A stretch of DNA of 64,000 nt from Phyllosticta citribraziliensis. Lineage: Eukaryota. Made by a program: the position numbers and the translations under genes. The stretch covers positions 558,001 to 622,000 of the forward strand of contig NW_027117346.1 of assembly GCF_038025025.1 (NCBI RefSeq), in the 5' to 3' direction. Under the pieces are notes generated by a model, which worked only from the letters and a program-made list of their open reading frames with translations, made no database searches and had not been told where the DNA came from. This document shows positions 15,639 to 20,735 of the stretch, one piece after another (position 1 is the first letter of the stretch; the number at the start of each line of letters is the position of its first letter).

Positions 15639-18208
15639 GTTTGTTTGGATGGTGTGTGGTTGGTGTTGAGGTCCGCGTCCAGGTTCCTTGAGGCGACACC
15701 GACAGAGCGGCACGCTCTCCGGATGCCGATCTCACCACAAGTGAACAGCAAAGTCAAGCTCCACTCGCCTGCAACCCCCAAGTCCATCCGACCACCAACC
15801 ACCACCCACCAACCACCACCCACCGTCGCCGCGAAGACGACGACGACAACTGCACCGCCTCGCCGCCGCCGCCCGCCCGCCCACAGGCCCGTCGCTCTTT
15901 TTCGCGAGATTGCCGCGGCTCTGGCGGCGCCATGGAATCGAGTTCCCCGTCGGTTCGGCCCTATAGCGCGCCAGCAGCACTTGACAGCCATGCTCTCCCT
16001 GTCTCGTTGCATGCCAGCTGGCAAGGCCCTCCCCGGTCAAGACGACGCGCTGCTAACCTCCTCACCGCCCATTTCCCGTCTGTCCTGTCCTGCGGTGGAC
16101 ACGACAGCAGAGCCTGCGTCATACCCCGGATCTGTACCGAAAGAGACTTCAACCTCATCGTCATCCTCCAGCGCCTAAGGCCTCCCTGCTCCATGTCGCT
16201 GCCAGGTCCACGTGCATCTCTGCGGTAGGGACATGCCATGTTACTTCAACACCATCTCATCGCAAATCCGTCCGCCTTCCATCAAACTGCGCGACTCCGT
16301 TCCGTACCCGCCAACCCACCAGGCCTGTACGCCGTGGCTGTAGCCGCACGCAATCGATGCCGCCTGCCGCCTGCCGCTCCCCATGCCTCATCCTTTAGGC
16401 TTCAATCATCTCACATCCCACTCCATCCTGCGCGTGCCCCGATGCTGCTTGTGGCCCGCTGTCCGTCTCTACCCACACCACAGCACACCTACCGCCCTCA
16501 CGCCACATGAGCCCCCGCCGGCCGAAATACTACCAACGTGTTCCTGGACTCCCTGACAGCTCACGTGGAGAGACAGCTGCCAGAGTTGCACCGCGCATCT
16601 GCCCGCTTGCCTGCTTGCCGCCGCCGCCTGCCTGCCTGCCTGCCTGCCTGTGTCAACACAAATTGTCTGTCACTTTGACCACGGCTACGAGCGTCCGCAG
16701 AATGTCCTGTTTCACCGCTCTTATGTATCTCCAAGGATTCCATCAAGTTACAGTCGCAGACACCTTTCATTCTCTCCCCACCCATCTCCAACCACGGATT
16801 TTCTGGTAGCGAACCACTGCCGGGGCCACCATCTGCCGGCCCTCACTTGCTGGGATCTGTCTGCAAAAAAAGGTTGTGCAGATCTTCGTCCCCGGTGCTG
16901 CGCCAGGTCATCAAGCCTGCACCGTTCTCACAGTCTGATGGAAGGGAGGGAAGGGGAAAAAAAAAAAAAAGGAAAGGAAAAAAGGCCCAAGACTTCCTTC
17001 AGGCGCATCCCTGAAGCAGTTCACCGCTTAACTCTTGCCGATGACTGGTTGCCTTGAGAAGCTGTCAAAACTCGTCCTTTAGGTGTCCACCTTCTATTTG
17101 CCTCTTGCCGTCGGTCGACCTTGCCAGAAGTTTTTTTTTTTTTTTTTTGAATCACTGTCCTTTTCTTGTCCGGCCAAAGCCGTGGCTTGGGGACTCTGCC
17201 ATCTGGTCTGCGCCGGCTTTACGGCCCCGTAGTCAAGACACGTCATCACACGTCTGCCTGCAGCTCGTCAGAAGCCTGCCATTTCTTTCCTTCACCCTCT
17301 GCCATGTCCGGATTCAGTGATCCTTGAAATAGTACCCGTGGTTGATCCCAGGAGGTGCTTACTGTGTGGCGCCGCCCATCATGCATGAACATCGTTGCCC
17401 AGCAGTTTGATTAGGAACAAATTTTCCGCCCGCCTGGTCGCATGTTCCCTTCTTTTTGGCTTCCGCCGTTGGTGTGGGCGGTTGCTTTTTCGCACCTAAT
17501 ACACTTGCGTGCACAGCAGCCACGATTGGCCGTCAACACAGTCAACCCCTGTGACCGGGGGCCCTTGATCGCCTTCCCAAATAGCACATGACGGGTAGCG
17601 AGTAAGAGTGCAGAATGAGCCTACAAAGACGTAGTTGGTCGTTGCGTACCCTCGCATTCGGAACTTTTCGACCTCGACTCATTTGCTTCGCCACCAACTG
17701 CGTTCGAAGCCCATCTTGCTGCGGGGCCCAGTGGGTTGTCTTGTCTTGCTTACGGATCTCCCTGCGCGTCAAGCTTAGTCTCCCCCAAGTCCTTCAGCCT
17801 CGCCAAGCTTCGTCCAAAACTTCTACCGCTGTATCTACGTGGTCACAACTACAACTAACCCGGTCCCGCCGTTCAAGACGCCAAACATCCGGCCCGTACC
17901 TCGAGGGTTCCCCCCGCCAAGGAGACCCCGAAACCGCTGAAATTCCCATCCCTCGACCTACCCTCACCATCTTCGCTTTGACCTGTCCATCTCCCAGGGG
18001 CTCTTCAGTTTAGCCGACTGCGATACGAGAGGCTTGCAACGCCAAAGCCTATTCAATCTCAATCAGCGTTTCGGACTGATGCGAGACTGAACATCTGGCT
18101 AACAAGAAAACTCACGCGCTGCCTCGGAGCGCAGAGAAAATCTGTCGACCGTCTTGATTGCTCGGTGGGCTGGCCTTCGCTGGAGGCCAGCCTCAACACA
18201 CCTTCACC

Positions 18209-19892
18209 CTGGATATCGCCTCGCTTCTCGAGTCGCGAGACTCTCGCGACTCCGAGTCACCGCGAGCTAACAAGACTTCCGCATCTGGAACATCAGGCGG
18301 AGCGGGATCTTTTGCGTCGCAACATCCAGGCGCAAGACCTCCACCACTACCACCGCAACCTACGCTGCCACCTGTAGCTTCCTATGCCACCCCAAGGTCG
18401 ACGGGTGTATTGTCGCCTTCGCCTCCTCGGCCTCCGTCGCAATGGACGCCTATTCAACATACCCGTCCGTACTCTAGCTATCGGCAGTATCCGCCGATGG
18501 AAGAGACGTCGCCAACATACGTCCACCAAGGTTTCCGGCCCATTTATTCAGGAGGCGTAGGCCCACCGCCTGGAGCTCCTCATCCCGCCACTATGGCTGG
18601 CCATCAAATGGTTCCTCCAGCTCCGCAACCCATGCTGCATCCTTCAAACAAGAGGACTGCCTCGCGAGCTTCTCTCGTGGCCGAACCATCTTCGGCCATG
18701 CAGAAAAAGGAAAAGAAGCTCAAAGGAAAGTGGACGGAGGAGGAAGAAAAGCTGCTCATCAAGCTTAGAAGCAGCGGCATGAAATGGGTCGACATTTCGC
18801 AGCAGAATCCGGGAAGGAGCGCAACCGCATGTCGGCTCAGATATCAGAACTACACCGAGAAGAAGGAGTGGTCTGAAGATGAAAAAGACATGCTTGCGCG
18901 ACTCTATCATCGGTATGGTCCTTTTCCTATAACACCACCAATGATTTGGGCTGCTGACACGATTTGGTGGCCTCAGGTTTATGGAAGACATGTGGAAGCG
19001 CATCGCAGACGAAATGTGTCGACCATGGCGCGCCTGCGAACGCATGCACTGGCAACTGGGAGAGGAAGAAATGCTTCGCCGCGCCAATGTGCAGTACCGT
19101 GGCACAACGTCCTCAAATCCATCACAATTATATCACGAGTCAATGTCTCCTGGATCTGGCGACGAGCAGGAGCAGCATTATGAGCAGTCGCCGCCGCCTA
19201 TTGGTGCTCCCCACCATCACTCCTCGTACTACCATACACGAGCCCACGGCATGCATGACGACCATCTGCACCACCATGAAGACGAAGACGAAGGCGGCGA
19301 ACACTGGGGCCCGGTTCATCGCACAGCGGATTTCTCTGCGACACCGCATCCACCCCCGCCAGGACACAACCATCCGGACACAAGGCATGGGCAGTCACAG
19401 CAACCGCCACCTTCCTCTTTACCACCTCCATCCTACTCACACCGAACGTCCTCAGGCCAGCACTCTTACAGCCTTTCCCACCACAGTGTGCCAGCCAGAA
19501 CAACGACGCCTGCTGGCACACCGACCCCCGGTCCCCTTGCGTCGCACCCATACGCCCGCCCCACAACCCCGCCTCCCCGGACAACTAGCGCAGGGGGCGC
19601 TTCATATGAAGCCGCCAACTCTGTCCCCACCTCCGCTGGTGGAAAAAGTGGAGACGGAAGTGGTACAACGCCTAGGACTTTGCCCGTTCATGGCGGTCTT
19701 GCGAGTCCATTTCCATCGGGCGGACGGCGGAGACCAGGCACGGCGAAGAGCCCGGAAACGGTGTCCAAGGAAACCCCCCGGCGTGGTGGAAGGGAGGGCC
19801 TTCGAGACAGGAGTGAACGAGCCGGATTCGTCGCGGACGTAGAGACGAAGGCCGAGGAAGGGGACAGGGGAAGCCAGAAAGAAAAGAAATGA
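18209..19892 (+). CDS. Myb/SANT-like DNA-binding protein; proposed CTG start at 18209 (first in-frame ATG at 18497)
   Basis: Exons 18209-18912 and 18977-19892. KWTEEEEKLLIKLRSSGMKWVDIS...PGRSATACRLRYQNY and a second repeat WSEDEKDMLARLYHR|FMEDMWKRIADEMCRPWRACERMHWQLG. Confidence 0.82.
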
Positions 19893-20683: not shown

Positions 20684-20735
20684 CTGGCTGGCTGGCTGGC
20701 TGGCTGGCTGGCTAGCTGGATGGATGGTTGGATGG
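20684..20735. repeat. Compound microsatellite (CTGG)n followed by (TGGA)n
   Basis: Read directly from the sequence. Confidence 0.85.

Follow-up and report, generated by a model that had tools for sequence, protein, structure and literature searches.

At which codon does translation of a Myb-like gene of the fungus Phyllosticta citribraziliensis begin? The gene is located on the forward strand of a 64,000-nucleotide (nt) stretch of DNA, hereafter the window (contig NW_027117346.1 of assembly GCF_038025025.1, positions 558,001 to 622,000; all coordinates below are those of the window), and the identical public model from this species consists of 443 amino acids (aa) beginning at ATG 18497-18499. 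This is the first in-frame ATG, it carries C at -3, and it lies 96 codons 3' of a CTG triplet (18209-18211) from which the protein is 539 aa long. Comparison of related loci argues, with a probability of roughly 0.8, that translation starts at CUG 18209 and that the annotated AUG truncates the protein, whose 96-codon N-terminal extension (18209-18496) is absent from the public model. The first-pass annotation, made from the letters of the window, had proposed this codon, and its description holds base for base: the proposed start is preceded by CACC and followed by G (CACC-CTG-G, 18205-18212), with A at -3 and G at +4, and opens the conserved N-terminal motif (M)DIASLLE (18209-18232). Its account of the frame was equally exact. 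An in-frame TGA (18155-18157), 18 codons 5' of the CTG, closes the frame; ATG does not occur in 18135-18208 by direct reading, hence there is none between TGA 18155 and CTG 18209; and two out-of-frame AUGs, 18384 and 18442, precede the AUG at 18497. The stop-to-stop frame (18158-19183) reads ...HTFT-L-DIASLLESRDSRDSESPRANK..., or (M)DIASLLESRDSRDSESPRANK from the CTG, and continues into the Myb_DNA-binding domain. The ATG at 18384-18386, in a weak context (C at -3), opens a frame that runs to 18560, past 18497, and that at 18442-18444, with G at both -3 and +4, opens an 11-codon frame ending at 18477, which closes 20 nt before AUG 18497. Myb repeat 1 (Pfam PF00249, E 2e-12) occupies 18722-18853, residues 189-232 of P0001; a 64-nt intron (18913-18976, GTATGG...CTGAC...CAG) lies within Myb repeat 2, and exon 2 extends over 18977-19892, including the stop codon (19890-19892).

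The strongest evidence is the identity of the codon itself. Eighty related metagenomic loci were gathered, in 70 of which the motif x-D-I-x-x-L-L and the Myb core share one open reading frame (ORF). The check that the first-pass annotation had proposed, a conserved CTG or ATG at this position in orthologues, came out in its favour: codon x is ATG, GTG or CTG in all 71 sequences with the motif (the 70 loci and the window: GTG 41, CTG 24, ATG 6), and no other Val or Leu codon is found. Clustering at 90% nucleotide identity gives 49 clusters (GTG 32, CTG 11, ATG 6) and clustering at 70% gives 21 (GTG 11, CTG 5, ATG 5). In the same ORFs GTG accounts for 30% of the Val codons and CTG for 21.5% of the Leu codons, and at the conserved leucines 6 and 7 the codon varies, each being written with five or six of CTT, CTC, CTA, CTG, TTG and TTA. 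The codon has also changed repeatedly, since a quick maximum-likelihood tree built without the codon itself calls for no fewer than 11 switches between these three triplets. All three are present among closely related Pleosporales-like loci, where a starred clade of five loci contains both CTG and GTG, and an ATG pair adjoins it in a less supported grouping. In orthologues, then, the codon stays start-capable (AUG or near-cognate) and does not drift to synonymous codons, with L070 as the exception. The surroundings are conserved as well. Among the 49 cluster representatives C is at -4 in 36, A at -3 in 42 (G in 5), C at -1 in 33 and G at +4 in all 49; codon 2 is always GAT or GAC (GAT in 45 of 49) and codon 3 is ATC in 47 of 49. 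It is at the codon that conservation sets in: an alignment of 16 Pleosporales-like loci is gapped in 34 of 104 columns over the 90 nt preceding it and stays in frame over the 120 nt that follow. Eight of the remaining 10 loci end at a contig edge before the motif, the other two being L021 and L070.

The gene product is a two-repeat Myb-like factor (Myb_DNA-binding profiles PF00249, 47.5 bits with a cut-off of 24.4, and PF13921, 33.3 bits with a cut-off of 22.9). A full HMMER scan with the 235-aa exon-1 product as query gave 2761 relatives at E<=0.001, several of which align from query residue 1 or 2. A search with A1, the alignment described below, for homologues of 826-2355 aa yielded none, a result without bearing on fused forms. 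The B. dothidea model aligns to the extension from residue 45 with 66% identity, and models of other fungi align from residue 1. By profile search the family is present in named Dothideomycetes, Eurotiomycetes, Lecanoromycetes, Sordariomycetes and Pezizomycetes, all members being labelled 'hypothetical' or generic Myb proteins. In a motif scan of the stored proteins and in a 38-sequence alignment of homologues (A1), x-D-I-x-x-L-L forms the N-terminal edge of all alignable sequence. Within A1, D2, I3, L6 and L7 are at least 90% conserved, and residue x is M solely where it is residue 1 of the model, as in MDINLLLEPRDSESP, MDISRLLESRDSESP and the Fusarium MDFAPLLK; otherwise it is V or L behind mutually unalignable extensions. 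Models starting with M exactly at x make up 10 of the 38 rows, including that of the window, whose CTG is displayed as M. Judged from these alignments, the motif is conserved across Pezizomycotina. When the exon-1 product is modelled by AlphaFold2 from A1, the helices of Myb repeat 1 and of the exon-1 part of repeat 2 appear at a predicted local distance difference test score (pLDDT) of 85-96, together with a short helix at residues 3-8 (mean pLDDT 69 over residues 1-10) and disorder elsewhere. The N-terminal motif, put forward in the first-pass annotation as a putative corepressor-binding element, is therefore predicted to be a short helical element. Met-Asp N-termini are substrates of NatB.

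Relatives of the window provide information on the transcript. Contigs of four coded runs were placed on 17500-19000 at a likeness of at least 80%, and 40 of the 161 differences from the window were listed; the statements on differences below refer to those 40. One contig of run X5, a relative, has the exact 18912/18977 joint of the coding intron. Another X5 contig is unspliced over 17972-18462 (depth 4.5), with X5 giving no cover in 17500-17958. X5 is probably RNA because it also holds this exactly spliced form. The CTG is thus probably inside the mRNA, and the X5 molecule probably lacks an intron ending at 18134 or 18190. The first-pass annotation had listed an upstream ATG exon spliced in frame and a transcription start downstream of 18209 among the findings that would overturn its proposal, and neither is borne out, as the X5 contig, if it is RNA, places the 5' end at or before 17972 and reads through both possible acceptors. 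Its apparent intron acceptor in the 5' untranslated region, at 18134, proved unsupported: X5 is unspliced there, and the listed change 18133 A>C in X6 and X20 turns AG 18133-34 into CG, so that the supposed acceptor is destroyed in these two relatives. The three substitutions listed in 18209-18496 (18268 GCT>GCC, 18391 ACC>ACT and 18457 CAA>CAG) are all synonymous third-position changes, which together with the homologues aligning from residue 1 or 2 bears out the coding-type conservation of the extension looked for in the first-pass annotation. The 12 listed indels all fall in 17729-18066 and measure 1, 2, 4, 5 or 18 nt, 11 of them not being multiples of three. Listed substitutions number 28 in 17618-18179 and 9 in 18497-18912, densities that are indicative only. 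As a separate observation, X6 and X20 each have a 3.6-kb contig that lacks exactly the 64-nt Myb intron (18912-18981), with synonymous changes at the joint, and that starts about 400 nt before 17500. If these contigs are cDNA, the leader would be about 1.1 kb long; alternatively, the intron may have been lost in those species. They were not used to place the 5' end.

The family also differs in which AUGs the frame offers. In 31 of the 43 non-ATG clusters, including that of the window, an in-frame stop lies upstream of codon x (median 14 codons) with no ATG between; 11 have an in-frame upstream ATG before any stop and one ends at a contig edge. The window belongs to the class without an upstream in-frame ATG. 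The 11 clusters are Eurotiomycete- and Lecanoromycete-like and share a conserved ATG that precedes codon x by 12-14 codons, or by 26-34 in some, with surroundings such as GCGCAT|ATG|A; named Eurotiomycete and Lecanoromycete models begin at this upstream ATG, e.g. MIALQNRPILPPAKVDISLLLK and MLQEVLVSPTAKLDISKLLK. On the downstream side the first AUG is found anywhere between +6 and +173 codons, and in 8 non-ATG clusters it is not reached until Myb repeat 1 has been entered or passed. L001 and L052, two of the 31 clusters with a stop and no ATG between, have their first in-frame AUG in this late position, and therefore no AUG could yield an intact DNA-binding domain in these loci. The B. dothidea model has no Met from the extension to the Myb domain and uses a far-upstream ATG instead.

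Some further features of the leaders were observed. A conserved GCGCAT-ATG-ATC/CTC element precedes the GTG or CTG in loci of Eurotiomycete and Lecanoromycete type and in some others, at -42 nt in L016, L028 and L044, at -36 nt in L036 and L038 and at -45 nt in L066, L075 and L080, its ATG being in a weak context (C at -3). The frame of this ATG is open in the -42 and -36 nt groups, adding 12-14 residues; it closes after 5 codons in L066, and in L075 and L080 an in-frame stop lies 9 codons before the GTG. Pleosporales-like loci (L008, L010, L011, L019, L020, L023, L025, L027, L032, L041, L056 and L057) have a different conserved ATG, located some 34-36 nt 5' of the start codon where the upstream hairpin described below has its 5' border (ATGGGCTGGC). 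Its frame mostly differs from that of the main ORF and extends over the start; it may represent a regulatory overlapping upstream ORF (uORF). Its equivalent in the window is GTG 18165-18167. The B. dothidea model begins MRLQRRSW...HFSELFESRHL, and the window has at ATG 17615 the peptide MSLQRRSW and in the next frame HSELFDLDSF (17615-17700). This frame-shifted likeness, about 590 nt 5' of the CTG, points to conserved non-coding sequence of the leader or promoter, or to the remnant of a uORF.

Folding of the RNA places the CTG in a 33-nt unpaired stretch (18194-18226) flanked by two hairpins on the plus strand. The upstream stem-loop (18167-18193; 12 base pairs, loop GCU, -22.5 kcal/mol, z -3.6) ends 15 nt before the CTG, and the downstream hairpin (18227-18256; 13 base pairs and one bulge, -19.5 kcal/mol, z -3.3 and -3.5) starts at +19, 15 nt after it. 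The upstream helix has a homologue in related loci, a GGGCUGGC...GCYRGYCC element in which 88% of the cells are paired (none of 500 shuffles was as high), with many G-U pairs; its covariation is modest, the score being reached by 18 of 500 shuffles. Inside the stem-loop the only listed difference among relatives is 18179 G>T, in the loop. The core of the downstream helix is kept in 22 Dothideomycete-type sequences, one pair being C-G in 16 and U-A in 6 and never broken, and insertions at this hairpin (SRD in the window, AR in one clade) extend the stem. The hairpin is shared only by Dothideomycete-type sequences. An Rfam search gave only a chance-level match, on the opposite strand (E 0.76). 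According to the available passages of PMC11165317, on structure-assisted RNA translation (START) at non-AUG codons, CUG initiation in mammalian extracts is enhanced by downstream structure, the efficiency dropping when the structure lay before +17 or beyond +32 with an optimum at +23 to +26, and the stability required was at least -15 kcal/mol in reticulocyte lysate and -21.6 kcal/mol in human cell extracts; the same passages cite an earlier effect of a downstream hairpin at 14 nt. The window hairpin, at +19 and -19.5 kcal/mol, falls between +17 and +32 and beyond -15 kcal/mol, and so resembles START in position and stability. The fit is by analogy only, as the START data come from mammalian extracts and an artificial Hox a11 hairpin, and the additional upstream hairpin of the window has no counterpart in what those passages describe.

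Four other accounts of the locus have to be weighed against initiation at CUG 18209. One is that both starts are used, the CUG giving the full-length protein and leaky scanning to AUG 18497 giving a shorter isoform without the motif, as in pairs of the C/EBP type. Near-cognate codons are inherently leaky, and an in-frame AUG precedes the Myb domain here and in most clusters. Such an isoform is nevertheless unlikely: its AUG would wander over the whole +6 to +173 range noted above and in 8 non-ATG clusters would come too late for an intact repeat 1, and in the window the frame of AUG 18384 runs past 18497. If AUG 18497 were instead the sole start, 18209-18496 would be a 5' leader conserved for RNA or regulatory constraints. 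AUG is the default start, the public model begins there, and the region does hold conserved RNA-like structure; the account is very unlikely all the same, because in 70 loci, the window and the models of several classes the extension shows protein-level conservation and runs in frame, without a break, into the Myb core, and the differences listed for it among relatives are all synonymous. Neither is the downstream Met conserved, since B. dothidea has none before the Myb domain and the models of Lasiodiplodia, Diplodia and P. capitalensis start at different places. The two intervening out-of-frame AUGs and the C at -3 of 18497 disfavour the annotated start and the short isoform alike.

The remaining two accounts move the start upstream. 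Initiation at another in-frame near-cognate codon, CTG 18170 or TTG 18158, would add 13-17 residues, and CTG 18170, flanked by G at both -3 and +4, stands in a frame open from 18158. There is only a very slight chance that this is the start, as the added residues are not conserved, CTG 18170 is buried in the 5' arm of the -22.5 kcal/mol stem, and its equivalent, the CTG of the GGGCTGGC element in Pleosporales-like loci, is cut off by a stop that closes its frame 5-7 codons ahead of the start. Alternatively, an upstream AUG exon could be spliced in frame just before D-I-A-S-L-L, so that the CTG would be an internal Leu codon. Suitable AGs exist at 18133-34 and 18189-90, with a CTAAC at 18100, and the far-upstream ATG of the B. 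dothidea model opens on residues that resemble the window from 17615 onward. This is extremely improbable given the in-frame TGA at 18155, the unspliced X5 contig, the loss of AG 18133-34 in two relatives, the position of AG 18189-90 within the hairpin stem and the indels of 17729-18066, which mostly break the triplet frame. Many loci moreover have an in-frame stop only 5-9 codons upstream, and the codons in between contain no AG where they are given in full (e.g. L008, L010, L023). Splicing would also fail to explain why codon x is restricted to NTG.

Several points weigh against initiation at CUG 18209. The naive probability of the codon restriction, 9e-25 for the 49 representatives and 8e-10 for the 21, is overstated since it ignores shared ancestry, and as hydrophobic residues M, V and L could plausibly replace one another in the protein as well. 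In the 11 clusters with an upstream in-frame ATG, which lies 12-34 codons before codon x and mostly in a weak context, the GTG or CTG may be an internal codon or a second start, yet even there it is strictly NTG. Two loci depart from the pattern. In L021 the CTG and the motif are present but the extension contains an internal in-frame stop, from a pseudogene or a sequencing error, and in L070, the sole divergent locus, the motif is degenerate, G-K-I-A-S-V-L-K, with G-K replacing x-D. (The L070 motif is preceded by TTCCAG, a possible acceptor, and by a long upstream open frame.) CTG 18170 is likewise open to the ORF, with its G at -3 and +4. The codon that the relatives carry at 18209-18211 is not readable from the listed differences, and the assignment of X5 to RNA comes from one spliced contig with a depth of about 4, none of the runs being catalogued as RNA. 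As to the structure, the covarying pair of the downstream hairpin coincides with a coupled peptide change, EPRGS/ESRDS (S/P and D/G), that may be a single evolutionary event or coupling at the protein level, and across the family downstream folding is only weakly stronger than in a control segment (mean z -0.72 versus -0.48 in 49 clusters).

If initiation does take place at CUG 18209, scanning 40S subunits would come upon the codon in strong surroundings (A at -3, G at +4), and the downstream hairpin, if it acts as in structure-assisted initiation, would keep them positioned over this weak start. The CUG would be read as Met by the initiator tRNA, giving a product that starts M-D-I-A-S-L-L-E with a short helical motif, and subunits leaking past it would encounter the two out-of-frame AUGs before reaching AUG 18497. 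The output of the factor would then depend on the stringency of start-codon selection. A more general picture is possible, although we consider it rather doubtful: a Myb-like family spanning Pezizomycotina that mostly started its main ORF at GUG or CUG, with occasional switches to AUG; in the Dothideomycete branch (the only one whose structure was examined) an unpaired window of about 30 nt between conserved hairpins spaced for the 40S subunit; an mRNA acting as a dose sensor of stringency (eIF1, eIF5, eIF2 status); and public models of which more than half are wrong at the N-terminus.

Initiation at non-AUG codons in filamentous fungi has been established for the extensions of Neurospora crassa cpc-1 and proposed for the bZIP factor IDI-4 of Podospora anserina. 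The cpc-1 N-terminal extensions arise from conserved near-cognate codons (Ivanov et al. 2017, PMC5487733), and the gene resembles the present one in several respects: it encodes a transcription factor of Pezizomycotina, its leader is long, coding sequence is conserved in frame 5' of the annotated AUG, and the near-cognates are deeply conserved. In the passages available, however, the cpc-1 extensions are optional additions to an AUG-initiated protein and act with uORFs, whereas in the Myb gene one codon position appears to be the main start and interchanges with AUG; the word 'myb' occurs 0 times in the available text of PMC5487733. IDI-4, as cited there, has a proposed CUG start conserved in a relative. 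It belongs to another protein family, and the passage mentions neither a family-wide GTG/CTG/ATG series nor flanking hairpins. No paper tying the present family to non-AUG initiation, and no characterised member of the family, was found in the literature searched. The conidiation regulators FlbD, BZcon1 and rca-1 are, like the product of this gene, fungal two-repeat Myb/SANT proteins, but according to the available part of PMC4132175 their Myb domain is at residues 1-110, with FlbD and NCU01312 as homologues, and they hence form a different family. Membership of the FlbD type was ruled out for the window gene, whose Myb repeats begin about 170 residues from the CTG and not at the extreme N-terminus. 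BZcon1 (402 aa, two Myb domains, with an upstream deletion allele) was considered as a characterised member and set aside, as the homologue table shows it to be of the FlbD type. MylA (AN4618, 724 aa) was rejected on its architecture and represents a different Myb family in the available text of PMC11199622. AN4527 (188 aa, two C-terminal Myb repeats) is a candidate that may be the member of the family in A. nidulans; its null mutant has been made, and in the available text a phenotype is described only for AN2001-delta.

The database models of the family are at odds over its N-terminus. Among 113 further public and metagenomic models (P0166-P0278), the motif is absent from 65, most of which start at a downstream Met, and only 11 start with M at x. 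In 34 of the 113, residue x is V (15) or L (19) and internal, behind an upstream extension picked by the gene caller; one has an internal M at x, one is an unrelated match and one has no match to the Myb core. The variable identity of the start codon would explain widespread mis-annotation. Many database models of this Myb family thus lack the conserved N-terminus, and studies or deletions designed on motif-less or extended models would miss or misplace it. Models of the family are inconsistent in other ways, some being extended to arbitrary upstream ATGs and one, P0234, being fused to 350 unrelated residues.

To our knowledge, few eukaryotic genes depend on a conserved non-AUG start for their main protein. 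The main ORF of mammalian eIF4G2 (DAP5/NAT1) starts at a conserved GUG. It is similar to the present gene in that the main ORF relies on a conserved near-cognate codon, and not an optional extension, but it encodes an animal translation factor and not a fungal DNA-binding protein. The best-studied fungal case found, cpc-1, concerns optional extensions. Initiation of a main ORF at a non-AUG codon is accordingly a known kind of event, of which the comparative data would make this Myb gene a well-supported new case with family-wide reach. What takes it beyond a single-gene curiosity is that a family spanning several classes alternates between AUG, GUG and CUG at one start position. The ATG, GTG and CTG versions of one start in closely related fungi constitute a comparative system in which stringency and flanking RNA structure can be set against protein output.

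Some minor features accompany the gene. A three-codon mini-uORF (ATG CGA GAC TGA, 18079-18090, plus strand), out of frame, is located in the leader by direct reading and is not conserved, its stop being altered (18090 A>C) in X6 and X20. About 2.5 kb (approximately 15640-18208) separates the CTG from the apparent start, at about 15640 by sequence reading only, of a divergent gene on the minus strand, and none of the ORFs in this interval has a recognisable coding character. Two simple repeats, about 20 consecutive T at 17133-17150, 1.06 kb 5' of the CTG, and a microsatellite of (GGCT)n/(GGAT)n type at 20684-20735, 3' of the gene, could break short-read contigs or mark promoter architecture.

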